Source: Acidobacteriota bacterium
GTDB taxonomy: Bacteria; Acidobacteriota; Thermoanaerobaculia; UBA5066; Gp7-AA6
Direction: 5' to 3'
Assembly: GCA_040004225.1 (NCBI GenBank)
Contig: JBDUBI010000184.1
Coordinates: forward strand, 1 to 43,803
DNA length: 43,803 nucleotides
Shown: in pieces, positions 1,412 to 22,278 of the stretch
Layout: each line of letters opens with the position of its first letter
Numbering within the stretch: position 1 is the stretch's first letter
Translations under genes and position numbers: made by a program
The notes under the pieces: model-generated
Told to the model about the DNA's origin: nothing
What the model saw: the letters and a program-made list of their open reading frames with translations, nothing else
Databases searched by the model: none

Positions 1412-4400
1412 ATGAGCTCCGAGACGATCGAAGGTTATCGGCTCGCGCCTCAGCAGAGCCGCCTCTGGTCTTTTCAAGAAGAGGACGGCGCGGCGGCCTA
1501 TCGAGCCCGCGCTCGAGTCGCGATAGATGGGCCCGTGGATGCGGGACGCCTGCGCCGGGCGCTCGACTCGGTCGTGCGGCGGCACGAGATCCTCCGCACG
1601 ACCTTCCGCCGTCTCGCCGGGATGCACGCGCCGCTGCAGGTGGTCAACGAGCTCCTTCCGATCGCGTTTGCAGCCGGCTCGGAAGCTCCGACGCCGATCG
1701 ATCCCGAAGCCGGTCCCGTTCTCGTTGCCTCGCTCGAGAGACGTTCCGCGGAGGCGAGCGAGTTGTTCCTGGAGCTTCCGTCGCTCTGTGCCGACCGCTC
1801 GACTCTCGAACGACTCGTTTTCGAGCTCGGCGTCCTCTACGAAGACCCGGGCGCCGAAGGGAGCCTCGGCGACATCCTCCAATACGCGGATGTAACCGAG
1901 TGGCTCCTCGAGCTCGGGCAGAAAACCGAGTCGGCGCCCGGGATCGAATACTGGCGCGGCCTGGACTTGTCTGCCGTCGGAGCGCTCGCCCTGCCCTTCG
2001 AGGAGGTTCCGGGGCACGCGGCGCGCTTCGACCCCCGGACTTTCGACGTCCTGGACTCCGCCGCGACGGCAAATCTCGTGGACGGGCTCTGCAGGCATCT
2101 CGACTCCACGCCTCGCACGCTGCTCTTGACCTGCTGGCAGATCTTGCTCGGGCGTCTGGTCGACGATGAGCGGCTCGTCGTCGGATACGAGACGGATGGG
2201 CGGGGGCTGCCGGAGCTCGCGGCGGCGCTCGGTCCCTGCGGGCGCTATCTGCCTCTTGCCGGGAGGGCGGCGGAGGATTCTTCGCTTCGGGTCGCGGTCT
2301 CGCGCGTCGAGGAATCGATCGAGGAGCAGAAGGTCTGGGAAAACGTCTTCGCCTGGAACGCGCAGCTCCCTCCCGGCTCTCCGGAGACCCCCTTCTTCCC
2401 TTTTTCCTTCGACTACGCCGACCGCGTGTCTTTTCCCGGCGGAGACGCGATGTTCCACGTCGGAGACCGGCGCGTGGTCCTGGACCGGTTCAAGGTCCGG
2501 CTCCGGTGCACGCGGAGCGGCGGCGCGCTCGCGGTGGCGCTCGACTACGACGCGAACCGGATCTCCGCCGGCGAGGTGGAGCGGCTCGGCGCGCGGTTCG
2601 AACGGCTGCTCGAGAGCGCGGCGGCCGAACCGGAGAGCGCGGTGCGCGCTTTGGACATCCTGCCGGAGGCGGAAAAGCGGCGCCTCTGGTTCGAGTGGAA
2701 CGACACGCGCCGGAATCTCGATCCGGCGCCGATTCTCGAGCGCTTCGAAGACCTGGCCGCGCGCTTTCCAGAAAGGATCGCCGTCGTGGGAGAGCGCGGG
2801 CGGCTCACCTATTCGGAGTTGAACGCGCAGGCGAATGGGGCCGCCCACGGCCTGCGAGAGGCGGGCGTCGCACCCGACACCATCGTCGGTCTCTGCGTCG
2901 AGCGATCCGTCGAGATGATCGTCGGCGTTCTCGCGATCTGGAAAGCGGGCGGGGCGTATCTCCCCCTGGATCCCTCGCTGCCCGACGGGCGCCTGGCGTT
3001 CCTTCTCGACGATACGAAGACTTCTCTCGTTCTGACGCAGGCGCCGCTCGAAGAACGGTTTTCGGGAACGCGGGCGAAGACGTTGCTTCTCGAGGGGAAA
3101 ACCGGGGGCGCCGCGGCGAACCCGGTGCGCGTCGCGCGGGCAGACCACCTCGCCTACGTGATCTTCACTTCGGGATCGACGGGCCTGCCCAAGGGCGTCG
3201 CGGTCGAGCACCGGCAGGTCGCGAATTACGTCGGCGCCATCCTGGAAGTCCTCTCGCCGGAGCCCGGAGAGGTCTTCGCGACGGTGACGACTCTCGCGGC
3301 CGATCTCGGCAACACCTCCATCTTCGCCTCGCTCGCCTCCGGCGGGACTCTTCGGGTCTTGCCGGAATCCCTCGCAAAGGACGCCGCGGCGCTCGCCGAG
3401 GATTTCGAGGCCGAGCCCGTGGACTATTTGAAGATCGTGCCGTCGCACCTCGGCGCTCTTCTTTCCGTCGCTCGCCCCGAGCGGTTGCTGCCCCGGCGCT
3501 GCCTCGTCCTCGGCGGGGAGGCCGCGAGCTGGGATCTCATCGAACGGGTGAGGGGGCTCGCGCCCGGGTGCACGATCGTGAACCATTACGGGCCGACGGA
3601 GGCGACGGTGGGGGCGGCGGCATTCCGGATCCCATCGGATCTGGCCGGCCCGCGGCCACGGACGGTGCCGATCGGCCGGCCGCTCGCCAACTATCGGGTG
3701 TTCCTTCTCGACACAGCCGGCCGGACGGCTCCGCTCGGCACCTCCGGGGAGCTGCACATCGGGGGCGCCGGGCTCGCGCGCGGGTATCTGAACCGGCCCG
3801 AGCTGACGGAGGCCAGATTTCCGACCGTCGAGATCGCGGGCGAAATGCAGCGGCTCTACAAGACAGGCGACGTGGCGCGGTATCTGCCGAACGGTGACAT
3901 CGAGCTCCTCGGGCGCAACGACGACCAGGTCAAGCTGCACGGCTTCCGAATCGAGCCCGGAGAGATCGAGGCGGCGCTCCGACGCCACCCCGGGGTCCGC
4001 GAAGCCGTCGTCCTGGCGCGCGAGGTCGACGCATCGGCAAGACGTCTCGTCGCCTACGTCGTCCCCGAAGCCGCGGCCGAGGCGCCCGCATCCGCCGAGC
4101 TCCGGCAATTCCTCCGGACGGCATTACCGGAGTTCATGCTGCCGTCTGCGTTCGTCCGGGTGCCCCGAATCCCGTTGACCGCGAATGGGAAGGTTGACCG
4201 TGCGGCGCTTCCGCTTCCCGATCCCGCCCGGCCGGATCACGGTGAGCCTCTCGTTGCTCCGCGAACGTCGAACGAGCGCATTCTCTTCAAGGTCTGGGCG
4301 GACGTCCTGCGTCACGACCGGTTCGGAATCCACGAGAACTTCTTCGACCTCGGCGGAGACTCGATTCTCGGCATTCAGATCGTCGTCGGCGCCGCCCGGG

Positions 4401-5925: not shown

Positions 5926-7782
5926 ATGTGCGGAATCTGTGGTGTCGTGAACATCCGGGAGCGCCGTCCGATCGACGAGAGGCAGCTCCAGGCCATGACC
6001 CGGACGCTGACGCATCGCGGACCCGACAACGACGGATACTTCGCGGGCGAGCGCGCCGCGTTCGGCGTCCGGCGGTTGAGCATCATCGACCTTCCTACCG
6101 GCAACCAGCCCATGTCGAGCGAGGATGGATCGATCCACCTGGTCTGCAACGGGGAGATCTTCAACTACCTGGACCTCCGGCACGAGCTCATCGCGCTGGG
6201 TCACCGGTTCCATTCGAACTCCGACGTGGAGGTGATTGTTCATCTGTACGAAGAGGAAGGCGAGGGATTGCTCCGGCGGCTGAACGGCCAGTTCGCCTTC
6301 GCGATCCTCGACGAGCGCGCCGATCGCGTGCTGCTCGCCCGGGACCATTTCGGCGTTCTGCCGCTGTTCTACACACGAGTCGGCGATACGCTGATCTTCG
6401 GCTCGGAAATCAAGGCGATTCTCGTCGATCCTCGCGTCGAGCGGAGGGTCGACCTGACGGGATTGGATCAGGTCTTCTCACTTCCAGGCCTGGTCAGCCC
6501 CCGAACCATGTTCTCGGGAATCGAGAGTCTTCGCCCGGGTCACCTCCTCGAGATCCGGAACGGTACCGTGCGCGAGGCCGAGTACTGGGACGTCTCCTAT
6601 CCGCGCGAGTCGGACGCGGTTTACGATCGGTCGGAGAGTGAGGATCTCGCGGACCTCGAGCAAAGACTCCTTTCTTCGGTCCGAAGCCGGCTGCAGGCCG
6701 ACGTTCCCGCGGGCGCGTACTTGAGCGGCGGGCTCGACTCGTCGCTCGTGACGAGCATGATGCGGTCCGTCTCGTCCGGTGACAGGAAGACGTTCTCAGT
6801 CGCCTTCGACGACCCTTTCTTCGCCGAGCGCGAGTACCAGGCGCTCATGGTCAACCATCTCGATGTCCCGCACCGGCAAATCGAGTTTGGCGTCGGAGAC
6901 GTCGCGACGCACATGCCTCAGGTCATATGGCACTGCGAGTGCCCGCTGAAAGAAACCTATAACGCGGCGACGTTCGCCCTTTCGGCCGCGGCGCAATTGG
7001 ACGGCGTGCGTGTCGTGCTGACGGGAGAGGGAGCGGACGAGCTTTTCGCGGGCTACGCGAGCTACCGCTTCGACGCCTTTGCCCGGGAACAGACCAGTCG
7101 ACCGGCATCTTGCGAGGAGTCCGCGATTCGGGAGCGACTCTGGGGAGACCCCCTGTTTCATTACGAAACCACCCAGTCGGCGTTCCAGGCCGTCAAGCAG
7201 GGACTTTTTTCCGACGCCGTGAATGCCCTGTACGCCGGATTCGACTTCACGCGTTTCGGCGTGATCGACCGGACCAAACTCGAGGGCCTCCATCCCCTCC
7301 ACAAGCGCTCGTACGTGGACATGAAGGTCCGACTGGCCGATCACCTTCTCGCGGATGCCGGGGACCGGATGCTGCTCGCCCATTCCGTCGAGGGGCGCTT
7401 TCCATTCCTGGATCTCGGCGTGTTTGATTCCGTGGCCCGCATGCCGCCTGATTTGAAGCTCCATGGATTCCGGGAGAAGTACGTGTTGCGAAAGATCGCG
7501 GCTCGGTACGTTCCGAAGGCGATCGCGGAGCGTGAAAAGTTTCCTTTCGCTGCCCCGGGCAGCCCCCAGCTGCTCGCCCGGAAGGCCGACTGGGTCGAGG
7601 ATCTGCTGTCGGAAGAGACGCTCGCGCGGCAGGGCTACTTCAACCCCGCCGAAGTCCGAAAACTGAGAGATCGATACGCCGCTCCCGACTTCATGTTGAA
7701 CATTCCATACGAGACCGATCTCCTGCTCATCGTCCTGACGTTCGGACTCTTTCTCCGCCTCTTCCAGATGCCGGACCTGTGA
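5926..7782 (+). CDS. Asparagine synthetase (glutamine-hydrolysing) family amidotransferase, AsnB-like
   Basis: The ATG lies 2 nt after the NRPS stop. N-terminal 'MCGICG' (Ntn nucleophile Cys), 'HRGPD', 'LVCNGEIFNY', 'SDVEVI', PP-loop 'YLSGGLDSS', 'LTGEGADELFAGY'. The ORF-track entry 5293..7782 is a 5' extension overlapping the NRPS. Confidence 0.88.
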   Translation: MCGICGVVNIRERRPIDERQLQAMTRTLTHRGPDNDGYFAGERAAFGVRRLSIIDLPTGNQPMSSEDGSIHLVCNGEIFNYLDLRHELIALGHRFHSNSDVEVIVHLYEEEGEGLLRRLNGQFAFAILDERADRVLLARDHFGVLPLFYTRVGDTLIFGSEIKAILVDPRVERRVDLTGLDQVFSLPGLVSPRTMFSGIESLRPGHLLEIRNGTVREAEYWDVSYPRESDAVYDRSESEDLADLEQRLLSSVRSRLQADVPAGAYLSGGLDSSLVTSMMRSVSSGDRKTFSVAFDDPFFAEREYQALMVNHLDVPHRQIEFGVGDVATHMPQVIWHCECPLKETYNAATFALSAAAQLDGVRVVLTGEGADELFAGYASYRFDAFAREQTSRPASCEESAIRERLWGDPLFHYETTQSAFQAVKQGLFSDAVNALYAGFDFTRFGVIDRTKLEGLHPLHKRSYVDMKVRLADHLLADAGDRMLLAHSVEGRFPFLDLGVFDSVARMPPDLKLHGFREKYVLRKIAARYVPKAIAEREKFPFAAPGSPQLLARKADWVEDLLSEETLARQGYFNPAEVRKLRDRYAAPDFMLNIPYETDLLLIVLTFGLFLRLFQMPDL

Positions 7783-7858: not shown

Positions 7859-10800
7859 GTGATCCCAGAAAGCGGAGAATTGAGAGCGCCGCTCTTCCGG
7901 CATGTCTTCGAATTGCTTGCCGGTAACGAGCAGCTGCGACCGGACGCGGTCGCTATCGTCGCGGCCGGCCGTTCTCCGACGACCTACCGCAGTCTTCTGG
8001 CAAACGCCCTGGGACTCGCCGACCGATTGAAGGAGTTGGGCGTCGGGAGGGCGGACCGGGTCGCGGTCGTCTTGCCGAACGGTCCGGAGATGGCGACGGC
8101 GTTCCTCGCGGTCTCAATGGCCGGAGTCTGCGCGCCTTTGAATCCCGGCTATCGCGCCAACGAGTTCCGGTTTCTTCTTCCCGACCTCGGCGCGCGGGCG
8201 CTGATCGTCTCCGCGGGCGATGAAACCTCACCTGCCCGCCTGGCGGCGCGGGAGCTGGCAATACCCATCTTCGAAGCGCGGCCGGCGGTTGATTCGGGCG
8301 CGGGCGGCTTCACTCTGACGGGCGATTCGACGGGCCCGCCCGCTTCCCCCGGTTCCCCGGACGCAGACGACCTCGCGCTCGTCCTCTACACCTCGGGGAT
8401 GACGTCGAGGCCGAAGGCGGTTCCCCTCTCTCACCGTCGGATCTGCATCTCCGCGCACAACATCGCGGTCGCGCTCGAGCTCACGCCGGGCGACCGCTGT
8501 TTGAACGTCATGCCGCTCTTTCACGCGCATGGCCTGATCATCGCGCTGCTCTCCTCCTTGACGGCGGGAGGGTCGGTCGTGTGCTCCGGCGGATTCTCGG
8601 CAGAGGATTTCTTCGCCTCGGTCCGGGACGCGCGGCCGACCTGGTATACGGCGGCGCCGACTATCCACCATGCGGTCGTCGAGAGCGCGCCGGAGTACCG
8701 GGGGATCCTCCGGGGCCACGGCGTGCGCTTCATCCGATCCTCCGCCGCCTTTCTGCCCGCGAACGTGAAGGCGGGGCTCGAGCGGGAGTTCGCCTGTCCG
8801 GTGATCGAGGCGTACGGGATGACGGAGTGCACGCAGATCACGTCGAACCCTCGGACGCCGGACGGACGGAGGGAGGGCTCCGTGGGCGTCCCCGCAGGCC
8901 CGACGGTCGCCGTTCTGGACGAGACTGGGAGGGTCCTGCCCCCGGGCGACGCCGGAGAGGTGGTCGTCCGGGGTCCGGCGGTCGTCACCGGTTATCTGAG
9001 CAATCCCGCCGCGGACCAGAGCGCGTTCTTCGACGGCTGGTTCCGGACCGGCGACCAGGGGGTCCTCTCGGCAGACGGGTACTTGACACTGACGGGTCGC
9101 CTGAAGGAAATCATCAACTGTGGCGGCGAGAAGCTCTCTCCCTATGAAGTGGATGAAGTCCTGATGGATCATCCCGCGGTTTCCCAGGCGGTCGCCTTTG
9201 GGGTCGCGCATCCGACACTCGGGGAGGACGTCGCCGCGGCGGTTGTCCTGCGCGGCGGCGCCGTGGCGACGGAGACGGAGCTCCGCGACTTCGCCGCGAC
9301 GCGTCTGGCGGATTACAAGGTTCCCCGCCAGATTCTGATCGTCGCCGAGATCCCGAAGAGCGCGACAGGAAAGCTTCGCCGCGTGGGTCTCGCCGAGGCG
9401 CTCGGGCTCGCGGCTCCGGCGGAGGGCCGCTCCGCGGCGGCCGCTCCCGCTCCCGCGCCAGAGGAGTCGGTGGAGCGGAGGCTCGCGAAGATATGGGCGG
9501 AGCTTTTGAAACTCGACAGCGTGGACATGAATGCCAACTTCTTCCGACTCGGGGGGGACTCCATCCTGGCATCGCGCCTCGTCGCGAGAGTTCGAAAAGA
9601 ATTTCGGGTGGAGCTTCCGTTGCGCAGCCTCTTCGCGACGCCGACGGTCGCGGAGCTGTCCTCCACGATCGAACGGAGCAAGTCCCAACCGGCGCCGCCG
9701 ACCGCGCCGGCGCGGGAGCGGTCGCGCCCTGCGGAGCCCCCCTCTCCCGAGCCCGAGGGCTTCCCGACTCCCGCGTCCTTCCCCTCGGTCTCGTCGCCCG
9801 CCGCCGTCCCGGCCGCGGAAGCGCTGTCCAGTTCGCCCGTGGGCGAGAGGGTGCACTTCAGCCTCATCTTCTTCTCCGCGGACGGCTCGACGGCGTCATC
9901 CGACAAGTACCGGCTCGTTCTCGAGGCGTCGCAGTTCGCCGACCGGCACGGCTACACGGCGGTCTGGACCCCCGAGCGCCACTTTCACCCCTTCGGAGGC
10001 CTGTATCCGAATCCGGCGGTCCTCGGAGCCGCGATCGCGGCGACGACGAACCGCGTTCAAATTCGCGCCGCGAGCGTCGTGCTTCCGCTTCAGAACCCCA
10101 TCCGGGTGGCGGAGGAGTGGGCCTTAGTCGACAACCTCTCGCGGGGGCGCGTCGCCGTCTCGTTCGCCTCCGGCTGGCACGTCAACGATTTCGCGCTCTG
10201 GCCGTCGACTTTCGAGAACCGGAAGAAAGTCATGTTCGAGCGTCTTCGCATCGTTCGGGACCTGTGGGCCGGCAAGCCGTTCATGACACGAAACGGCGCT
10301 GGCATCGAGATTCCGGTGACGAGCTACCCGAGGCCGATCCAGCCCACCCTGCCTTTCTGGCTGTCGTGCCAGTCCGATGAAACGTTCGCGATGGCGGGCG
10401 AGCTCGGGGGAAATGTCATCACGTCGATGTTCCTGATGTCGGTCGAGGAGCTGGCGGGGAAAATCGCCGTCTACCGCCAGGCCCGCGCCCGCGGCGGCCA
10501 CGATCCGGCGACGGGACAGGTGACCGTCAGCCTCCATACCTTCCTGGCGGAGGACGCGGCCACCGTGCGGGAGAAGGTGGGCGGGGCCTATCTCGACTAT
10601 CTTCTCGTCAACCTCGGTCTCCAGGCCGACCGCGTTCGCGCAGCGGGCGACGAGTTCGAGCCCTCCGACGCCGACAAGGAGTTTCTCACCCGACAGGCGA
10701 GCGAGCGGCTGTTCAACGAGCGCGGTCTCGTCGGGACCGTCGCCGCCTGCGCCGCGAGGGTCGCCACCTTGACGGCGATCGGCGTGGACGAGATCGCCTG

Positions 10801-10915
10801 CCTCATCGACTTCGGGATCGACTTCGACTCCGTGATGGCCAGCCTCTATCAGTTGAACCGCCTCAAGGACCTCTGCGCCGTCCGGTCCGCTTCCACCCCG
10901 GCGATCTCCGGATGA
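7859..10915 (+). CDS. Tri-domain loading protein: acyl-activating (AMP-binding) domain, carrier protein, luciferase-like monooxygenase (LLM)
   Basis: GTG start. AMP-binding motifs: 'LVLYTSGMTSRPKAV', 'MPLFHAHGL', 'WYTAAPTIHH', 'RFIRSSAA', 'IEAYGMTE', 'GWFRTGDQG', 'GGEKLSPYEVD', 'ATGKLRR'. Carrier: 'FFRLGGDSILASRL' (about 9550). A Pro/Ala/Ser linker follows. LLM domain from about 9845: 'FSLIFFSADG', 'YRLVLEASQFADRHGYTAVWTPERHF', 'VVLPLQNPIRVAEEWALVDNLSRGR', 'FASGWH'. Confidence 0.88.
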   Translation: MIPESGELRAPLFRHVFELLAGNEQLRPDAVAIVAAGRSPTTYRSLLANALGLADRLKELGVGRADRVAVVLPNGPEMATAFLAVSMAGVCAPLNPGYRANEFRFLLPDLGARALIVSAGDETSPARLAARELAIPIFEARPAVDSGAGGFTLTGDSTGPPASPGSPDADDLALVLYTSGMTSRPKAVPLSHRRICISAHNIAVALELTPGDRCLNVMPLFHAHGLIIALLSSLTAGGSVVCSGGFSAEDFFASVRDARPTWYTAAPTIHHAVVESAPEYRGILRGHGVRFIRSSAAFLPANVKAGLEREFACPVIEAYGMTECTQITSNPRTPDGRREGSVGVPAGPTVAVLDETGRVLPPGDAGEVVVRGPAVVTGYLSNPAADQSAFFDGWFRTGDQGVLSADGYLTLTGRLKEIINCGGEKLSPYEVDEVLMDHPAVSQAVAFGVAHPTLGEDVAAAVVLRGGAVATETELRDFAATRLADYKVPRQILIVAEIPKSATGKLRRVGLAEALGLAAPAEGRSAAAAPAPAPEESVERRLAKIWAELLKLDSVDMNANFFRLGGDSILASRLVARVRKEFRVELPLRSLFATPTVAELSSTIERSKSQPAPPTAPARERSRPAEPPSPEPEGFPTPASFPSVSSPAAVPAAEALSSSPVGERVHFSLIFFSADGSTASSDKYRLVLEASQFADRHGYTAVWTPERHFHPFGGLYPNPAVLGAAIAATTNRVQIRAASVVLPLQNPIRVAEEWALVDNLSRGRVAVSFASGWHVNDFALWPSTFENRKKVMFERLRIVRDLWAGKPFMTRNGAGIEIPVTSYPRPIQPTLPFWLSCQSDETFAMAGELGGNVITSMFLMSVEELAGKIAVYRQARARGGHDPATGQVTVSLHTFLAEDAATVREKVGGAYLDYLLVNLGLQADRVRAAGDEFEPSDADKEFLTRQASERLFNERGLVGTVAACAARVATLTAIGVDEIACLIDFGIDFDSVMASLYQLNRLKDLCAVRSASTPAISG

Positions 10916-12153
10916 GCCTTCGGCGTCCGAGCCTCGAGATCCCGGGGGAAGCGCTTTCGGAGGTCGACCGGGGCCCACTCGGCGGGATCGTAGTCCTCGA
11001 CGCCTCGCGGACGCTCTCCGGACCCTACTGCACGATGCTGCTCGCGGACATGGGCGCCACGGTCGTCAAGATCGAACAGCCGGGGCAGGGCGATCCCTCC
11101 CGGGGATGGCCCCCCTTTTTGCGGGATGAGAGCACCTATTTTCTGAGCGTCAACCGGAACAAGAGGAGTGTGACGCTCGATCTCCGGCAGCCGGATGGTC
11201 GACGGTTGCTCTGCGACATGGCGAGCCGCGCGGACGTTTTCGTCGAGAACTTCAAGACGGGCTTCCTGTCGGGGCTCGGTCTCGACTTCCCGGCGCTCCA
11301 CCGGGTCAACCCGCGCCTCGTGTACTGCTCGATCTCCGGATACGGACAGACTGGACCGCGCCGCCAGGAGACGGGATTCGACCTCACGATTCAGGCGGAG
11401 AGCGGGATCATGGACGTCACGGGCCAGCCCGACGGCCCGCCCACGAAAGTGGGCGTTCCTCTCACGGACGTGACGGCCGCTCTGTACGCGGCGTACGGCG
11501 TTCTCGCCGCGCTGCGCGCCCGGGACCGGACGGGGTCCGGGCAACTCGTGGACGTCGCGCTCTTCGACGCCGCGCTTTCGCTTCTGACGTTCCAGGCTTC
11601 GGGCGTGCTCGCGGGGACCGGCGAGCCGCGGCGGCTCGGGAATCTGCACCCCTCTCTCGCTCCCTACGAAGTGTTTCGAGCGTCCGACGCCAGTTTCGCG
11701 CTCGGCGTCGGCACGGACGCGCTCTGGAACCGCCTCTGCGCCGTGTTGACCGCCCACGGGTTCTCCAGCGAGCCCGCCTTTGCGACGAACGCCGGCCGCA
11801 TCGAACGCCGGGACACGCTCCACCAGCGGCTGGAGGAGGTCTTCGCCCGCCGGCCGACCGGGCACTGGCTTGCGGCCCTGAGAGAGGCGGGGATTCCGTG
11901 CGGCCTCATCCGCACGGTCCGCGGGGCGCTCGAGGGCGAGCAGGTCGCCGCCCGCGAAATGGTTCGCGAAATGGAGCATCCCGCGCTCGGGAAAATCCGC
12001 TCCGTCGGAATCCCCGTGAAGCTCTCCGCGACGCCGGGATCGTTCCGGCGCTCCCCCCCACTGTTAGGCGGCGACAACGAAGAGATCTATGGCGGCTGGC
12101 TCGGGATCTCCGCGGCCGAGCTTCAGGACCTGAAGAGCCGGGGGGTCGTTTGA
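10912..12153 (+). CDS. Family III CoA-transferase (CaiB/BaiF/Frc family)
   Basis: The ATG overlaps the upstream stop (ATGA, 10912-10915). 'LSGPYCTMLLADMGATVVKIEQPGQGDPSRGW' and 'GFDLTIQAESGIMDVTGQPDGPP' (catalytic Asp region) are typical family III signatures. Confidence 0.85.
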   Translation: MSLRRPSLEIPGEALSEVDRGPLGGIVVLDASRTLSGPYCTMLLADMGATVVKIEQPGQGDPSRGWPPFLRDESTYFLSVNRNKRSVTLDLRQPDGRRLLCDMASRADVFVENFKTGFLSGLGLDFPALHRVNPRLVYCSISGYGQTGPRRQETGFDLTIQAESGIMDVTGQPDGPPTKVGVPLTDVTAALYAAYGVLAALRARDRTGSGQLVDVALFDAALSLLTFQASGVLAGTGEPRRLGNLHPSLAPYEVFRASDASFALGVGTDALWNRLCAVLTAHGFSSEPAFATNAGRIERRDTLHQRLEEVFARRPTGHWLAALREAGIPCGLIRTVRGALEGEQVAAREMVREMEHPALGKIRSVGIPVKLSATPGSFRRSPPLLGGDNEEIYGGWLGISAAELQDLKSRGVV

Positions 12154-12275: not shown

Positions 12276-13727
12276 ATGTCTTTCGGGCAGCAGCGGCTCT
12301 GGTTTCTGGATCAGCTGGAGCCTCAGAACCCCGCGTACCACGTGCAGGTGGCGCTCCGGTTGAGAGGGCCGCTCGACCTCGCGGCCCTCGAGGCAAGCCT
12401 CTCGGAGATCGCGAGGCGGCACGAGATTCTGCGGACGACCTTTCAGGTGGCCGGCGGCGAGCCGCGTCAGGTCATCGCTCCCGCGCAATCGCTCGCTTCC
12501 CGGGTCGCCGCCGTCCCCGACGGCTCCGGGGAGGATCGCGAACGGGAGGTCCTGCGGCTCGCCCACGAAGAATCGCTGCGGCCGTTCGACCTCGCGCGAG
12601 GACCGCTCGTCCGGGTCTCCCTCTTCCGGATGTCGGAACAAGACCACGTGTTCGTCGTCGTGATGCATCACATCGTCACGGACGGCTGGTCGACGTCGGT
12701 CTTTTTCCGCGAGCTCGGTGCTCTGTACAGAGCCTTCCGCGACCGCGAACCGTCGCCCCTTCCGGAGCCGCCGATGCAATACGCGGACTTCGCGGAGTGG
12801 CAGAGGCGATGGCTTCTCGGAGACGTTCTCGAGGAACAACTCACCTTCTGGAAGCGGCAGCTCGGGCAAAACCTCCCCATGCTCGATCTACCGCTCGATC
12901 GTCCGCGCTCGAGCCACCAGGGTCAGGGAGCGAGGCAGTCCTTCCGTGTTTCGAGAGAGACGGCGGAGGGATTGAAGTCGCTCGGCCTCGACGAAGGAGC
13001 GACTCTCTACATGTCGCTCCTCGCCGTGTTCGCGATGCTGCTCCACGCGCGAACGGGTCAGGAGGACATCGTCATCGGCACCCCGATGGCCGGGCGCACG
13101 CAGCTCGAGACCGAGGATCTTATCGGATTCTTCGTCAATCCTCTCGTGCTGCGAATCGACCTCTCCGGCGACCCGACGTTCCGAGAGCTGCTCGGACGCG
13201 TGCGCGAAGTCGCGCTCGACGGATATGCGCACCAGGATCTCCCGTTCGAAAAGCTCGTCGAAGTTCTGCATGCGCAGCGAACGCTGAGCTCGTCGCCCCT
13301 TTATCAGGTCTGGTTCGCGTTTCAGAACGTGCCCGACCCGCGGCCCGAGCTTCCGGGGATTCTCGTGACCGCGCTCGAACCGGACTGCCGGCAACTCGAC
13401 CGCGGACCGACCGGCACCGCGCGTCACGATCTGAGGTTCGGCCTCTCTCAGACGCCCGATGGGCTGCGCGGAGACGTGGAGTACAAGACGGACCTCTTCG
13501 ACGCACCGACCATCGCCTCCCTGGTCTTCGATTACGAAACACTTCTCCGGATCGCCGTCGAGGACTCGGGACGGACGTTGCGCCGTTGTATGGAGCGGCT
13601 CCGGGAAGCCCGCAGACGGGAAGGCGCGGGCCGCAGGAGCCGGCACTCGGAGGCGGCGCGCGGCTCGCTGCTGACTTCGCGTCGAAAGCCGCTGCACGGC
13701 GACGCGCCGGACGAGACGTCGAAATGA
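12276..13727 (+). CDS. Stand-alone NRPS condensation domain protein (LCL-like)
   Basis: 'MSFGQQRLWFLDQLEPQNPAYH', 'RRHEILRTTF', canonical 'MHHIVTDGWS', 'QYADFAEWQR', 'IGFFVNPLVLR'. No A or T domain is attached. The start is chosen at the first ATG that gives a normal C1 motif; ORF-track 11898 is a 5' extension overlapping the CoA-transferase. Confidence 0.85.
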   Translation: MSFGQQRLWFLDQLEPQNPAYHVQVALRLRGPLDLAALEASLSEIARRHEILRTTFQVAGGEPRQVIAPAQSLASRVAAVPDGSGEDREREVLRLAHEESLRPFDLARGPLVRVSLFRMSEQDHVFVVVMHHIVTDGWSTSVFFRELGALYRAFRDREPSPLPEPPMQYADFAEWQRRWLLGDVLEEQLTFWKRQLGQNLPMLDLPLDRPRSSHQGQGARQSFRVSRETAEGLKSLGLDEGATLYMSLLAVFAMLLHARTGQEDIVIGTPMAGRTQLETEDLIGFFVNPLVLRIDLSGDPTFRELLGRVREVALDGYAHQDLPFEKLVEVLHAQRTLSSSPLYQVWFAFQNVPDPRPELPGILVTALEPDCRQLDRGPTGTARHDLRFGLSQTPDGLRGDVEYKTDLFDAPTIASLVFDYETLLRIAVEDSGRTLRRCMERLREARRREGAGRRSRHSEAARGSLLTSRRKPLHGDAPDETSK

Positions 13728-16700
13728 CGAGAGGTCCGGGTGGTCGTGGCGAGCAGGATACCGGGATCAATCAGATCGACCTCGAGGACGTGTACGAGCT
13801 CTCCCCGATGCAACAGGGCATCCTGTTCCACACACTCTACGATCCGGTCAACGACGTGTACCTGGAGCAGAGCGTCGTGACCCTCCGCGGAAAGCTCGAC
13901 GTCGCCCGCTTCGCGGAGGCGTGGCGGCGAGTCGCCGAGCGGCACTCGATCCTGAGAACCTCTTTCCATTGGGAGGATCTGGAGAAGCCGGTGCAGGTCG
14001 TCCAACGGGATGCTCGAGTCTCCCTCGACGTTCGGGACTGGCGCGCGCTCCCGGGGGACGAGCGGTCGAGCCGTCTCGCCGCCTTCCTCGAAGAGGATCG
14101 CGGAAGAAGCTTCGATCTGACGTCCGCTCCTCTTTGGCGCGTCGCGCTCCTGCAAACGGAGGACGACGTCCACGAATGCGTTCTGAGCTTTCAGCATCTG
14201 CTTCTCGACCGGTGGTCGCGCCTACTGCTCTTCAAAGAGATCTTCACTCTCTACGCTGCCTCGGTTTCCGGCAACGAGGCGGCCCTGCCTCGGGCGCCCT
14301 CGTACTCCGAATACATCGCGTGGCTGCAGAAGCAGGACCGGAACAGGACGGAATCGTTCTGGCGGGGTACGCTCGCCGGGTTCTCGGCCCCGACGCCGCT
14401 GCGAAGCGTGGGGGCAAGTGCGGCTGGAGGCGGTTCGGGCTTCACCGAGGCGAGTGGTCGACTCTCGCCGGACCAAACCGCCCGCCTTCAGGCTCTTGCC
14501 CGAAACAGCCGGGTGACACTGAATTCGGTCATCCAGGGCGCCTGGGCGATTCTCGCGAGCCGGTACAGCGGTCAGGACGACGTCGTCTTCGGCGTCACGG
14601 TATCCGGCCGCCCTCCCGGCCTGCCGGGCGTCGAAACAATGGTTGGGCTCTTCATCAACACGGTGCCCTTTCGAGTCGCCGTCCCGCGAGAGACGACCGC
14701 GCGGGAATTCCTCCAGGCCGTCCAGCGGAGGTTCATGAAGCTTCGCGAGTACGAGTACAGCGCACTTCTGGACGTTCAAGGGTGGAGCGAAGTGCCCCGG
14801 GGCACGCCTCTTTTCGATAGCCTCGTCGTCTTCGAAAACATCGACAGCGATTTCGACTCCGACGCCGCGTCCGGCGGCTTGAAAGTCGTCCGGACCCGCG
14901 GCTTCGGTGGGCGTACGAATTTTCCGCTCACTCTGGTCGTGAACGCGGAGCCGGCGCTTGCACTGCGGGTCTTCGGCGAGGGGGGGATCTTCGATCCTAC
15001 GACTCTGTCTCGGATGCTCGGGCATCTCGAGACGCTGCTCGACGCGATGACCGACCGGCCGGAACAATCGGTGTCTAACCTCCCGATCTTGACCGACGCG
15101 GAGCGCCGTCAGATCCTCGACGATTGGAACCGGCGTCCGGCAACAAACTCTCCGACGGAGTGCCTCCACCGGCGGTTCGAGGCGCAGGCCGACCGAGCTC
15201 CGGAATCGATCGCGGTCGAGTTCGACGGCCAAACCCTCGGCTATCGGGAGCTCAACCTTCGCGCCAACCGGCTTGCCCGACACCTGCGGCGGTTCGGGGT
15301 CGGCGCCGAAGTTCTCGTCGGCGTTCTTCTGGAGCCGTCGCTCGATCTCGTCGTCGCTCTGATGGCGGTGCTCAAGGCCGGTGGCGCCTACGTTCCGCTC
15401 GATCCGACCTATCCCCCCGAGCGGATCGGCTTCATGCTCGAGGACGCTCAAGCCGTCCTTCTCGTCACGGACGGACGAGCGGCTGAGTCGCTCGAGGTCC
15501 CGGCCGGCGTGCTCTCCGTCCGGATCGACGCGGACGCCGCGTCGATCGCCGGGGAAGATGGCCAGAACCTCGACCACGAGGATTCCCCGACGAGCCTCGC
15601 CTACCTGATCTACACCTCCGGGTCGACGGGTCAGCCGAAAGGCGTGTTGGTGGCGCACGCGAACGTGGACCGGCTCTTCACGTCGACGGAGCCGTGGTTC
15701 CGGTTCGACGAGCGCGACGTGTGGACGCTCTTCCATTCCCATGCCTTCGACTTTTCGGTGTGGGAGCTCTGGGGCGCGCTGAGGTACGGAGGCCGGCTCG
15801 TCGTGGTTCCGCGTTCCGTCGCCCGCTCGGCGGACGCATTCCACCACCTGCTCGCCGCCTCCGGCGTGACCGTTCTGAATCAGACGCCCTCGGCATTTCG
15901 CCAGCTCATTCCGATCGACGCAAGCTCCGATACCCCCCTCGGCCTGCGCCTCGTGATCTTCGGCGGCGAGGCGCTCGACGCCGGGATGCTCGCGCCCTGG
16001 CTCGAACGCCACGGCTGCGAAACACCCCGGCTCGTGAACATGTACGGGATCACCGAAACGACCGTGCACGTGACCTATCACCCGATGACGTCGGCGGATG
16101 TTCGCAAGCCGTTCGCGAGCGTGATCGGACGGCCGATACCGGACCTTCAGGTGCTCGTGCTCGATGACGAGCTCCGCCTCTGTCCGATCGGAGTCTCGGG
16201 CGAGCTCTGCATCGCTGGGGCGGGTTTGGCGCGAGGCTACCTGCGCCGACCCGATCTCACTGCTCGGAAGTTCATTCGAAACCCCTTCGCGGAGGACCCC
16301 GCCGATCATCTCTACAGATCGGGCGACCTCGGGCGCTTCCTTCCCGACGGCAATATCGAGTACCTGGGCCGGATCGACGACCAAGTCAAGATCCGCGGAT
16401 TTCGAATCGAGCTCGGAGAGGTCGAGTCGGTCCTCGCGCGGCACCCATCCGTAGCGGCGAGCGCCGTGATCGTGCGCGAGGACGCGTCAGGGGACAAGCG
16501 CCTGGTCGCTTACGTCGTGGGACCCGGGGGTAGCGCGCCGGCCGCTTCCGAACTGCGCCCGTTTCTGAAGCGCACGCTGCCCGAATACATGGTGCCTTCA
16601 TCGTACATCGCGCTCGAGAAGCTTCCGATGACTTCGACCGGAAAGCTTGATCGACGGGCATTGCCCGAGCCCGGGGAGACTCACCTAAGCGTGGCGTCCT

Positions 16701-20682: not shown

Positions 20683-22278
20683 GTGTCGGTCATGACGCCC
20701 GTTTACCTGCGCCCCAACGCGTTCGTCGAGCCGCTTTTCAACCGCTGGTATGCGTGGCCCTACCTCGTCTCGCCGATGACGGCGGCGATGTATGTCGAAA
20801 GCCTGCACCTGCCCCTGCTGGAATCGTTCCTGGCGAATCCCCGGATGCATGTGGCGGCGCTCTCGAATCCCGAGATGGCGGGAGGGCCGTTCGTCGGGCA
20901 CGGGGAGGCGAGCGCGCCGGCCGTCGCGCGACTCCTCCAGGAAACGCGCCGGGCGAGCGCGCCGCTGCTGGAGTTCGCCGCGGCCGTGCGCGAGCTCACG
21001 AAGATCCTCGCGGAACGTGCCGACGGGTGTTCGCTCCAGTCGGTCTACAGCGCCGTCCCAGAGGCCCTTCGCGGATTCGTCGAGCTCGTCTACGACGTCA
21101 ATCACCATGCTTCCATTCGATTCCTGGAGCCGCTCCTGTACCGAAGCCGGTTCTTCGACGAGAGCGCGCAGAGCGTGTTGCTCTCGCTGGTCGGGGGAGA
21201 CGATCGCGCTTTCGTCTTTAACACGCCCCGACTCGAAGAGGGCGGCGGCCTGCGGCTCGACCTGCCCTATCGCTCCGAAGCGCTCGACGCGCTCTTTCGG
21301 ATGCGAGAGCACGCGCGACCACTCGCCTTCGCGCGGGAGGCCCTCGGAGTGGCGGAGTCGTCCGGAGGAAACTTCGAGCGCCTCTTCACGGACCGTCCGC
21401 CGCGTCTGCAAAGCCTCCCCCCGTCTTCCGGAGTCCGTGTCCGATATTTTGGCCACGCCTGCGTCCTCGTCGAGACCCGGGGAACGAGCGTGCTGACGGA
21501 CCCTCTGATCCCGTACGAGCACGGCGCCGGAATCCCGCGATACAGCTGGAGCGACCTCCCCGCGTCGATCGACTACGCGCTGATCACCCACGCCCATCAG
21601 GACCACTGCATGCTCGAGACGCTGCTGCAGCTGCGCCACCGGATTCGAAACATCGTGGTGCCCCGCAATTCGGGTGGGGGGCTCGCCGACCCGTCCTTAA
21701 AGCTCATCCTCGAGGCCGCGGGATTCCGCAACGTCTACGAGCTCGACGAGCTCGGTGAGATCGCGACGCCGGGCGGCTCCATCACCGCCGTTCCGTTCCT
21801 CGGCGAGCACGGGGACCTGAACATCCGCAGCAAGACAACCTATCTCGTCAAGCTGCTCGGCCGGTCCTTTCTCTTCTGCGCGGACTCGAACGCCTTCGAG
21901 CCGGCCATCTACGATCACCTTCGCGACCTTCTCGCCGGGCTCGACGCCGTCTTCGTGGGGATGGAATGCGAAGGCGCTCCGATGAGCTGGATGTACGGGC
22001 CAGTCCTGACGGCGCCGCTCGCGCGCCGGATGGACCAGTCGCGCCGGCTCGACGCGTCCGATTGCGAGCGGGCCATGGCGATGGTCGAGAGACTTCGGCC
22101 GCGCTCCGCGTACGTCTATGCGATGGGCTCCGAGCCGTGGCTCGGCTATCTCACCTCGATCCACTACACCGAACAGTCGCGTCCGATCGTGCAGTCCCGC
22201 GCGTTCGTCGCCGCCTGCGAGGCCGCCGGAGTCCCGGCCGCCGTCCTCCACGGCTCGAGCGAAATGTCGTTCGCATGA
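20683..22278 (+). CDS. Metallo-beta-lactamase-fold protein with N-terminal extension; CmlA-like non-heme diiron beta-hydroxylase candidate
   Basis: 531 aa. The C-terminal half carries 'ALITHAHQDH' (HxHxDH), 'FLGEHGD', 'FCADSN' and 'GMECEGAPMSWMYGP'. It is preceded by an N-terminal domain of about 250 aa. The stop overlaps the start of the stand-alone A-T gene. The family assignment rests on recalled CmlA architecture, not on a search. Confidence 0.65.
   Translation: MSVMTPVYLRPNAFVEPLFNRWYAWPYLVSPMTAAMYVESLHLPLLESFLANPRMHVAALSNPEMAGGPFVGHGEASAPAVARLLQETRRASAPLLEFAAAVRELTKILAERADGCSLQSVYSAVPEALRGFVELVYDVNHHASIRFLEPLLYRSRFFDESAQSVLLSLVGGDDRAFVFNTPRLEEGGGLRLDLPYRSEALDALFRMREHARPLAFAREALGVAESSGGNFERLFTDRPPRLQSLPPSSGVRVRYFGHACVLVETRGTSVLTDPLIPYEHGAGIPRYSWSDLPASIDYALITHAHQDHCMLETLLQLRHRIRNIVVPRNSGGGLADPSLKLILEAAGFRNVYELDELGEIATPGGSITAVPFLGEHGDLNIRSKTTYLVKLLGRSFLFCADSNAFEPAIYDHLRDLLAGLDAVFVGMECEGAPMSWMYGPVLTAPLARRMDQSRRLDASDCERAMAMVERLRPRSAYVYAMGSEPWLGYLTSIHYTEQSRPIVQSRAFVAACEAAGVPAAVLHGSSEMSFA

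Follow-up and report, generated by a model that had tools for sequence, protein, structure and literature searches.

An oxalate-ligase-type loading protein with a fused luciferase-like monooxygenase as the core of a conserved starter cassette in Acidobacteriota

Introduction

To a large extent the chemistry and activity of a non-ribosomal peptide depend on its starter unit, and loaders consisting of a ligase and a carrier protein are known for fatty and aryl acids. In a stretch of 43,803 nucleotides from an Acidobacteriota bacterium (contig JBDUBI010000184.1, hereafter the window) one gene codes for an acyl-activating ligase (AL), an acyl carrier protein (ACP) as well as a luciferase-like monooxygenase (LLM) in a single chain, which raises the questions of which acid such a protein loads, what the monooxygenase does to it and to which partner the product is handed over. 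The producers are uncultured members of a phylum from which hardly any natural products are known. To our knowledge, no loader built on an oxalate-ligase scaffold, with a fused alpha-hydroxylase and with its own CoA-transferase and condensation (C) domain, has been characterised so far, and a literature search found no paper on oxalate-ligase-type loaders of non-ribosomal peptide synthetases (NRPSs) or on AL-ACP-LLM proteins.

Domain architecture of the loading protein

The gene encodes a true three-part initiation protein of an NRPS line (Table 1). Pfam assigns AMP-binding to residues 27-380, AMP-binding_C to 430-505, PP-binding to 541-603 and Bac_luciferase to 667-978, and together with the NCBIfam profile TIGR04020 these domains bear out the AL-ACP-LLM architecture of the original prediction; all ten motifs quoted there for the ligase and the LLM were found at the expected positions. 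The database copy of the protein comprises 1011 amino acids, and the stop codon of the reading frame overlaps the ATG of the following CoA-transferase gene (ATGA at 10912-10915). In the AlphaFold model (mean pLDDT 77) three folded domains are connected by disordered linkers at residues 520-535 and 611-662. The phosphopantetheine site of the ACP is Ser568 in a GGxS motif (LGGDSI, residues 564-569), and this serine is invariant among 28 homologues. Since about 40 other database proteins, 43-71% identical and about 35 of them metagenomic, share the same three-domain architecture, the gene is a conserved one and not a chance fusion.

Table 1. Positions in the window of the loading protein gene, its domains and the neighbouring cassette genes
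Feature	Position	Strand	Remarks
AsnB-family glutamine amidotransferase	5926..7782	+	TIGR01536 at 463 bits; MCGICG and SGGLDS motifs present
AL-ACP-LLM loading protein gene	7859..10915	+	1018 codons, GTG start; alternative TTG start at 7880
Acyl-activating (ANL) domain, assigned to the oxalyl-CoA-synthetase clade	7937..9373	+	PDB phmmer, Foldseek, pocket mapping
Carrier protein (ACP/PCP)	9479..9667	+	PF00550 at 59 bits
Pro/Ser/Ala-rich disordered linker, ACP to LLM	9668..9856	+	pLDDT about 30 at residues 611-662
FMN-dependent luciferase-like monooxygenase domain, MupA/Atu3671/PuwE-Ox family	9857..10867	+	TIGR04020, PuwE OX match
Family III CoA-transferase, translationally coupled to the loader	10912..12153	+	PF02515 at 436 bits
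Free-standing condensation domain, LCL-like, HHIVTDG	12276..13727	+	Proposed partner of the loader ACP

Ancestry of the ligase domain

From its motifs the ligase had been taken for an AAE3/Pcs60-type enzyme rather than for one of the fatty acyl-AMP ligases (FAALs), and comparisons of sequence as well as of fold confirm this. In a phmmer search of the PDB the best matches are AAE3 (5ie0, 365 bits), LsOCS (6qjz, 353 bits) and Pcs60 (8aff, 337 bits), as against about 210 bits or less for the next families, i.e., MatB and the benzoate ligases. Foldseek matches 5ie3 (TM 0.81, 40% identity), and ranks 1 to 7 are all oxalyl-CoA synthetases. The alignment to AAE3 is collinear from motif A5 (YGMTE) to the hinge, with gaps of one or two residues only, and therefore the FAAL-specific insertion of about 20 residues in the N-terminal domain is absent, as judged relative to AAE3 and to the Pfam profile. 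In addition, residues 27-380 match 377 positions of that profile, the fold alignment takes 512 columns for a 504-residue target, and no FAAL is found among the 60 best sequence matches in the PDB or the top 50 fold matches. By these comparisons the domain is assigned to the oxalyl-CoA-synthetase clade of the ANL enzymes (AAE3/Pcs60/FadD7) and not to the FAALs; against the NCBIfam equivalog profile for FadD7 (NF004511) it scores 431.7 bits, which is below the cut-off of 650 bits.

Like AAE3 from A. thaliana (5IE0-5IE3), LsOCS (6QJZ) and Pcs60 (8AFF), the domain keeps the length, the catalytic lysine and the core motifs of the ANL family, namely TSGMTSRPK (178-186, P-loop), YGMTE (319-323), GWFRTGD (393-399), the hinge GRLKE (413-417) and Lys505, all of them invariant among the 28 homologues. 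In contrast to those enzymes, however, its chain continues into an ACP and an LLM, so that it presumably charges a carrier protein instead of CoA. It has in common with the FAAL-ACP(-LLM) and the MycA-type AL-ACP-KS-AT-ACP-AMT starters of lipopeptides that an adenylating enzyme charges a dedicated ACP and starts an NRPS/PKS line, but it differs from both in having no FAAL insertion, in having short-acid ligases as its closest relatives, and in being accompanied by a C domain and not by a KS.

The substrate pocket

The oxalate pocket of AAE3 is made up of V215, H216, C288, S289, A313, M314, H319 and K500, of which S289 and H319 are conserved only in oxalyl-CoA synthetases (PMC8905533). The loader has A223, H224, S295, A296, G320, M321, Q326 and K505 at these positions, so that both oxalate contacts are exchanged (S289 for Ala296 and H319 for Gln326), and the replacement of Ile/Val by Ala223 opens and enlarges the pocket. 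The S/H pair is lost in all homologues fused to an LLM (26 of 26 counted on the tree, 41 representatives in all) and kept in 96 of the 109 homologues that have no LLM. The LLM-fused ligases do not form one clade, the deep branches of the FastTree phylogeny being unresolved, and since fusion to the LLM changes state only about three times on this tree, giving three independent contrasts, its coincidence with the loss of the pair does not lend itself to a statistic. In a second LLM-fused clade, found among the metagenomic homologues, the pair reads Ala/Leu, with Leu taking the place of Gln at the H319 position; a neutral distal group would suit this residue better than a carboxylate would. A bona fide MatB for a comparison of pockets was sought in the genome and the controls, but none scored above the cut-off.

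Oxalate itself is unlikely to be the substrate, because its contacts S289 and H319 are replaced and an oxalyl group, which has no alpha hydrogen, offers none to the LLM. Of the short-acid starter originally proposed, the part concerning oxalate is not supported, the two contacts being replaced both here and in every LLM-fused homologue, while short dicarboxylates as a substrate class remain plausible. The ligase descends from oxalate-activating enzymes, and the loader probably loads and hydroxylates a small acid that is slightly larger than oxalate.

The monooxygenase domain

The assignment of the LLM to a natural-product subfamily is substantiated by TIGR04020 (MupA/Atu3671 LLM), which matches residues 667-1003 over its full length (profile positions 1-341 of 341) with 438.6 bits at a curated cut-off of 244.45. 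The closest solved structure is the OX domain of PuwE (6ket; 354 bits, 47% identity, TM 0.87). At 86 positions residues are conserved at 90% or more both in the LLMs of the AL type and in those of KS-AT-ACP-LLM proteins, including E706, R707, H708, F709, S771, G772, H774 and D777, and the same motifs are present in PuwE. With these family-conserved residues kept, the domain, which is not decayed, looks like an intact member of the MupA/PuwE family and is predicted to be a carrier-protein-dependent alpha-hydroxylase. A consistent difference from the KS-AT-ACP-LLM set is seen at four positions (Q745/H, L780/F, A910/P and Y911/F). As the phosphate-binding R107 of LuxA aligns with Ser771 of the loader, the flavin contacts of LuxA are not simply transferable to this domain.

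MupA hydroxylates only ACP-bound beta-keto thioesters and requires an external flavin reductase (PMC10952193), and the Ox domain of PuwE makes 2-hydroxy-3-amino acyl units (PMC4219810). Both MupA from mupirocin and the PuwE Ox/MOX domain from puwainaphycin (6KET) belong to the same TIGR04020 family as the LLM of the loader and act on carrier-bound thioesters; here, however, the ACP in front of the LLM is a loading ACP, which receives its cargo from a ligase, and not a PKS ACP with a beta-ketoacyl chain made by a KS. The same ACP-LLM didomain stands at the end of many KS-AT-ACP-LLM proteins, in which the substrate of the LLM is borne by the ACP before it. Short substrates are not guaranteed for this family, as MupA did not accept acetoacetyl-ACP (PMC10952193).

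The cassette and its neighbour genes

The loader is the core of a portable 'starter kit' cassette of the order (AsnB)–AL-ACP-LLM–family III CoA-transferase–free C domain. A genome search with a junction-spanning query revealed that the AL-ACP-LLM–CoA-transferase–C arrangement is syntenic in four related Acidobacteriota genomes (G646, G586, G618 and G514), the CoA-transferase following the loader and the free C domain following the CoA-transferase in all four. The AsnB gene adjoins the loader upstream in G646, G586 and G514 as well as in L001, but is not adjacent to it in G618. Contig searches of genomes and metagenomes gave, among the matches listed, stand-alone and AL-ACP-C ligases and no LLM fusion except the truncated L001. 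In the window, G646 and G618 the cassette has NRPS genes on both sides. In G586 and G514 there is none within at least 15 kb of it in either direction; there it comes directly after the gene of a TonB-dependent receptor, which shows 84% identity between these genomes, and related NRPS genes are found on other contigs of both.

The CoA-transferase keeps the catalytic Asp186 (in GVPLTDV), its best solved relatives being 10uh, human SUGCT (9br7) and YfdE (4hl6), and it resembles the dicarboxylate-handling enzymes SUGCT and YfdE. For the AsnB homologue the closest solved relative is 7ylz, a 'hydroxyamidotransferase'. The best solved relatives of the free C domain are the in-line elongation C domains of Txo1/2 and TycC, with VibH not among them. 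It is 49% identical to the second C domain of NRPS2 and has no specific kinship to loader-fused C domains, although it shares its LCL-like class with the C domain that follows the ACP in 84 AL-ACP-C loaders of the oxalyl-CoA-synthetase type. It might instead work with the Val A-T didomain, which has no C domain of its own. In NRPS1 the N-terminal C-like domain is without the HH motif, both in the window and in G618.

A proposed pathway

The reading that we prefer, with about even chances of being right, is that the loader loads a short beta-carbonyl acid and alpha-hydroxylates it, and that the product is used as an N-terminal cap via the free C domain of the cassette. The ligase would adenylate a short acid slightly larger than oxalate, with an enolisable alpha-CH2 group next to a second carbonyl, and would charge its own ACP with it; malonate or malonamate may be the best guess, methylmalonate and acetoacetate being candidate alternatives. 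The guess of malonate draws on the reasoning about the pocket and on one characterised family member, MupA. With FMNH2 from an unlinked reductase the fused LLM would then hydroxylate the alpha-carbon, and the free LCL-type C domain would pass the 2-hydroxyacyl (tartronyl-type) group so formed on to an NRPS-bound amino acid, at whose amino group it would form the N-terminal cap.

The CoA-transferase would most likely free the acid from its CoA ester, e.g., by converting malonyl-CoA and succinate to malonate and succinyl-CoA, although we know of no precedent for a family III CoA-transferase that supplies a free acid. A possible role of the AsnB homologue is the amidation of the distal carboxylate, in the way of OxyD with the malonamyl starter of oxytetracycline. 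The OxyD/OxyP system likewise combines an AsnB homologue with a starter derived from a C3 dicarboxylate, but it operates in a type II PKS context without ligase, LLM or CoA-transferase, and its link to the cassette is one of analogy only. A more far-reaching proposal, which is conceivable but doubtful, would be that the cassette represents an undescribed, FkbH-independent route to a carrier-bound unit of the hydroxymalonyl type (tartronyl or 2-hydroxymalonamyl) by means of a CoA-transferase that frees malonate, a re-tooled oxalate ligase that puts it on an ACP and a fused MupA-type LLM that hydroxylates it, and that this unit caps peptides, possibly iron carriers, with an alpha-hydroxy-carboxylate ligand. 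On this proposal the exchanges S289A/H319Q would be a readable code separating oxalate-type from malonate-type members of the ligase clade, and the hundreds of AL-ACP-C loaders that keep the S/H pair would be expected to make N-oxalyl peptides.

If the preferred reading is true, the cassette would be a compact and portable means of installing a small polar 2-hydroxy-acyl cap, a potential metal-binding group, and the logic of MupA-type hydroxylases would extend from PKS modules to loading modules. The two exchanged pocket residues would, moreover, be a marker for predicting the substrates of a clade of NRPS loaders that is large, widespread and unstudied.

Alternative explanations

The alternative that survives best, though rather unlikely, has a small neutral acid (e.g., acetoacetate, pyruvate, lactate, glycolate or propionate) in place of a dicarboxylate as the substrate of the ligase; the LLM would oxidise this acid, and the CoA-transferase and AsnB would serve other steps. 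The loss of Ser and His, by which two polar contacts for a distal carboxylate are removed, and the sister clade with Leu at the His position would be in line with such a substrate. However, the loader always has the CoA-transferase as its neighbour, and this enzyme is similar to dicarboxylate-specific ones; carboxylates are what AsnB-type enzymes act on, and the 1,3-dicarbonyl system that MupA requires excludes simple monoacids except beta-keto acids.

Lower still, and equal to each other, are the chances of two further explanations. According to the first, the four-gene cassette would be a self-sufficient route to a small metal chelator for secretion, e.g., the amide of an alpha-hydroxy acid or a hydroxamate, with the C domain condensing the ACP-bound acid and a soluble amine in the manner of VibH, the NRPS context being secondary. 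The isolated position of the cassette behind a TonB-dependent receptor gene in G586 and G514, the hydroxyamidotransferase as closest structure to the AsnB homologue, and the suitability of alpha-hydroxy carboxylates, which are classic ligands of Fe(III), all fit this explanation. Against it stand the relationship of the free C domain to ordinary elongation domains and not to VibH, the position of the cassette between NRPS genes in the window and in two of the relatives, and the NRPS genes elsewhere in G586 and G514, which make a use in trans possible.

The second of the two involves a KS-AT-ACP-AMT-C-A-T protein of the MycA/PuwE type (at 24203), which the cluster also holds and which has no Ox domain of its own. 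The LLM would act in trans, in the manner of the PuwE Ox domain, on a beta-keto or beta-amino intermediate bound to the ACP of this PKS module, giving a 3-amino-2-hydroxy acid, and the AL-ACP part would deliver an unmodified short acyl group. The kinship to PuwE, the closest solved LLM, speaks for such a role, as does the fact that MupA itself works in trans; but ACP and LLM form a conserved fused unit in the roughly 40 AL-ACP-LLM proteins and in many KS-AT-ACP-LLM proteins, in the latter with the LLM behind the substrate-bearing ACP, the cassette persists in genomes in which no KS-AMT module was found, and the altered ligase pocket of every LLM fusion points to a link between the loaded acid and the LLM.

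An orthologue of the KS-AMT protein (72-74% identity) accompanies the cassette in the genomes G586 and G646; a search with the KS-AMT query did not find the module in G514 or G618, and in all four relatives the neighbourhood of the cassette is free of KS and AMT. In the window a distance of 13 kb and one operon separates the loader from the KS gene, whose start overlaps the stop of the Val-type A-T gene and which is thus translationally coupled to it. As regards membership among the MycA/iturin-type starters, the loader is neither fused to nor always encoded with a KS-AT-ACP-AMT module, and in the window it belongs to a separate operon. Least probable of all, and in our view very unlikely, is therefore the hand-over of the original prediction, in which the ligase loads oxalate or another short dicarboxylate and the module at 24203 extends it by one malonyl unit and transaminates it in MycA fashion to an iso-aspartate-like unit: the clade of the ligase, the presence of the module in the cluster and its co-occurrence with the cassette in two relatives favour it, but the oxalate contacts are replaced, oxalyl-ACP has no alpha hydrogen for the fused LLM, the companions of the loader are a CoA-transferase and a free C domain and not a KS, two genomes hold the cassette with no KS-AMT module found, and the KS is coupled to another gene.

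Two other candidates were discarded. A corramycin-like cluster (beta-hydroxy-Val, PKS) is not at hand, as corramycin uses a FAAL and a HAD-type starter. The use of a hydroxymalonyl-ACP made by the loader as a PKS extender unit was set aside because the AT of the PKS module carries the malonyl-CoA signature GHSIG...HAFH.

Architecture and family of the loader

The gene of the loader, the AL-ACP-LLM protein composed of an acyl ligase (AL), a carrier protein and a luciferase-like monooxygenase (LLM), is real and belongs to the single NRPS/PKS cluster that fills the window, which has a G + C content of about 67% and is itself a complete contig from an Acidobacteriota genome bin with 82% completeness. 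Its alternative TTG start agrees with the 1011-aa database copy of the protein (see table). The predicted domain architecture is borne out by the Pfam domains and by the NCBIfam model TIGR04020 (MupA/Atu3671 natural-product LLM), which matches residues 667-1003 over its full length with 438.6 bits (cut-off 244 bits), and all motifs quoted in the original prediction are found at the expected places. In the AlphaFold model, built from 28 homologues, there are three folded domains and disordered linkers at residues 520-535 and 611-662.

Coordinates of features in the window, in the loader and at related loci
Feature	Location	Strand	Remark
Loader ORF	7859-10915	+	1018 codons, GTG start; alternative TTG start at 7880
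AMP-binding	loader residues 27-380		Pfam
AMP-binding_C	loader residues 430-505		Pfam
PP-binding	loader residues 541-603		Pfam
Bac_luciferase	loader residues 667-978		Pfam
AsnB homologue	5926-7782	+	
NRPS1 N-terminal C-like domain	1412-2740		
Orthologue of this domain in G618	L212:13504-14799		
NRPS2 first C domain	13724-15070		
Val-type A-T didomain	22275-24206		
Methyltransferase-bearing A domain	30900-32400		
Terminal module	34900-36400		
TonB-dependent receptor gene, G514	L214:13882-16410	+	directly upstream of detached AsnB–AL-ACP-LLM–CoAT–C cassette
TonB-dependent receptor gene, G586	L211:4477-7005	-	directly upstream of detached cassette
Second loader in the window's genome	G000:C109:1490-3262 (L208)	-	
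AL-ACP-TE protein	L107:301-3093	-	
AL-ACP-TE protein	L103:1438-4266	+	
PanE-type reductase homologue	L039:14778-15779	+	Methyloversatilis universalis

With respect to the ligase (residues 1-534), the oxalyl-CoA synthetases are the closest family both by sequence and by fold, as had been predicted from its motifs. The best solved relative is Arabidopsis thaliana AAE3 (5ie0, E = 5e-108, 365 bits), and Lathyrus OCS (6qjz) and yeast Pcs60 (8aff) score 353 and 337 bits, whereas malonyl-CoA synthetase, benzoate ligases and FadD13, which come next, score no more than about 190-210 bits. Likewise, 5ie3, 5ie2, 5ie0, 6qjz and 8aff fill ranks 1-7 of a Foldseek search with the loader model (identity 38-40%, TM up to 0.81). 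The best NCBIfam model, the FadD7 family, scored under its cut-off, and no FAALs were among the top matches. Since the ligase aligns collinearly with AAE3, the stretch from YGMTE to the hinge containing no gap longer than two residues, and since the Pfam core is matched without added length, the FAAL-type insertion, the check proposed at the outset, appears to be absent.

The substrate pocket

The oxalate pocket of AAE3 consists of V215, H216, C288, S289, A313, M314, H319 and K500; oxalate is contacted by S289 and H319, whose conservation is restricted to oxalyl-CoA synthetases (PMC8905533). The loader aligns A223, H224, S295, A296, G320, M321, Q326 and K505 at these positions, so that both oxalate-specific residues are replaced (A296, Q326). 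Compared to the bacterial oxalate type, Ile is changed to Ala223 and Ser to Ala296, which is predicted to make the pocket larger. The oxalate-type signature (PLFH[IV]HG / R[FL]IRS[SC]S[AS] / EAYGMTEA[AS]H) is carried by most AL-ACP-C-A-T NRPS proteins from many phyla and also by stand-alone ligases (about 500 aa; 52-58% identity) that occur in Alphaproteobacteria, Betaproteobacteria and Acidobacteriota. It is gone in every LLM-fused ligase, the window's clade having Ala/Gln and a second clade Ala/Leu. On the tree, residues other than Ser/His occur in all 26 LLM-fused rows versus 13 of the 109 LLM-less rows, a consistent pattern that falls short of statistical proof, LLM fusion switching state only about three times and the deep branches being unresolved. 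Judged by these residues, oxalate is an unlikely substrate of the loader.

Several other members of this ligase group were observed. The window's genome encodes a second loader of the ligase clade (AL-ACP-C... architecture, 52% identical) with the Ser/His oxalate-type signature, and therefore both pocket types coexist in one organism. The AL-ACP-C-A-T proteins that keep Ser/His in an oxalate-ligase-type first domain (about 1700 aa; P0032-P0121; loci L002-L010, L014 and L037) number in the hundreds and come from cyanobacteria, Chloroflexota, Gemmatimonadota, Binatia and other phyla; they may make N-oxalyl peptides, on which a literature search found no paper. Two single-module AL-ACP-TE proteins (930-943 aa) of Acidobacteriota family f41 have ligases of the loader's clade with non-oxalate pockets. 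In M. universalis, a homologue of PanE-type 2-dehydropantoate reductases is encoded about 3 kb 3' of a stand-alone Ser/His-type ligase; as oxalyl-CoA is reduced by PanE2 in Methylobacterium extorquens, this neighbour would fit an oxalate role of that ligase type.

The monooxygenase domain

The solved structure closest to the loader LLM is the OX domain of PuwE (6ket, 354 bits, 47% identity, TM 0.87), to which the 2-hydroxy group in the 3-amino-2-hydroxy fatty acid of the puwainaphycins is attributed (PMC4219810). In vitro, MupA, after which the family is named, depends on FMNH2 and an external flavin reductase and accepts only beta-keto thioesters on an ACP, which it hydroxylates at the alpha carbon, refusing beta-hydroxy and free pantetheine substrates (PMC10952193).

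A search with the ACP-LLM part showed this didomain to be a mobile unit, placed at the end both of AL-ACP-LLM proteins and of numerous KS-AT-ACP-LLM proteins (about 1400 aa); the ACP of the latter must carry a beta-ketoacyl chain. Because the two sets of LLMs have 86 positions in common that are conserved to at least 90% in both, with four fixed differences, the loader LLM, as predicted a member of the natural-product subfamily, is to all appearance intact and in all likelihood catalyses the same reaction. The absence of an alpha hydrogen from oxalyl-ACP is in keeping with the lost oxalate residues; the cargo should rather be a short acid in which an enolisable alpha-CH2 lies beside a second carbonyl. 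The large KS-AT-ACP-LLM family (P0138-P0210) stems from Acidobacteria and Chloroflexota MAGs, and there are also LLM-glycosyltransferase fusions (about 762 aa), the ACP-LLM or LLM parts being 46-56% identical to the loader's.

The conserved cassette

A junction-spanning query retrieved the three-domain loader from four related genomes (66-70% identity), namely G646, G586 and G514 of the same genus and G618 of the same family. In all four it is followed by a family III CoA-transferase (CoAT; 67-70% identical) and then a free C domain (56-60%), and in three of them, as well as in the Thermoanaerobaculia fragment L001, it is preceded by an AsnB homologue. In the window, loader stop and CoAT start overlap (ATGA). 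The CoAT retains the catalytic Asp, and its best solved relatives are a 409-aa 'formyl-CoA transferase' (10uh), human succinate–hydroxymethylglutarate CoA-transferase (9br7) and YfdE; at the 80 LLM-less ligase loci listed, no such CoAT was found beside the ligase. The solved structure closest to the AsnB homologue is the 'hydroxyamidotransferase' 7ylz (220 bits; E. coli AsnB, 178 bits), so that it may transfer either ammonia or hydroxylamine.

In G646 and G618 an NRPS2-like C-A-T-C-A-T gene follows the cassette. In G586 and G514 there is no NRPS gene for at least 15 kb, related NRPS genes sit on other contigs, and directly upstream lies a gene for a TonB-dependent receptor (843 aa, 84% identity between the two). 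G586 also has a second outer-membrane barrel gene downstream.

The architecture of the loader, the family placement of its three domains, the lost oxalate contacts and the conserved cassette are established. The parts (ANL ligase, carrier protein, MupA-type LLM, family III CoA-transferase, C domain) are of known kinds. Their combination is uncharacterised: a ligase scaffold of the oxalate type, altered in its pocket, is fused to ACP-LLM and accompanied by a CoA-transferase and a C domain. A literature search found no paper on it.

Proposed route and destination of the starter

We suggest that the CoAT would free a short beta-carbonyl acid from its CoA ester, malonate or malonamate being the best guess and methylmalonate or acetoacetate the alternatives; that the ligase would adenylate it and load it onto Ser568; that the LLM would hydroxylate it at C2; and that the free C domain would use it in a condensation that caps the N-terminus. 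Amidation of the distal carboxylate may be the task of the AsnB homologue, OxyD providing a precedent. As a 2-hydroxy-carboxylate, the cap would act as a ligand for metals, which would fit the receptor gene beside the detached cassettes.

Canonical in its motif (HHIVTDG), the free C domain is LCL-like and 49% identical to the second C domain of NRPS2, its best solved relatives being Txo1/2. The C domain following the ACP in 84 AL-ACP-C loaders is of its class and not of that of the first C domain of NRPS2. In the N-terminal C-like domain of NRPS1, LPSLCADRS replaces HHxxxDG and there is no HH motif; because its G618 orthologue, also without HH, reads LPALCADRA, it is a conserved non-canonical domain and not a product of decay. 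On account of the C class in AL-ACP-C loaders and of this C-like domain without HH, it is proposed that the acceptor of the modified acyl group, passed on by the free C domain, is an amino acid bound to an NRPS, probably NRPS1. Alternatively, it might serve the Val-type A-T didomain, which has no C domain of its own. Hand-over of the starter to the KS-AT-ACP-aminotransferase protein to give an iso-aspartate-like unit, as originally speculated, is disfavoured, because eight codons precede the KS fold in the KS gene, which overlaps by its start with the stop of the Val-type A-T gene, because the AT of the protein carries a malonyl-CoA signature, and because an orthologue, found in G586 and G646, did not turn up in G514 or G618, which are 92% and 95% complete. 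The same signature, gene layout and orthologue distribution argue against a role of the loader in providing a hydroxymalonyl-ACP extender.

As to the remaining domains of the cluster, the first C domain of the bimodular NRPS2 reads QHLLLDRWS at the active-site motif and has about 26% identity to other C domains. Rough, motif-read specificity codes are DAFW(I)GGTFK (Val) for the A-T didomain served by a CmlA-like hydroxylase, Gly-like for the methyltransferase-bearing A domain, and DLTKVGEVGK (Asn/Asp-like) for the terminal module.
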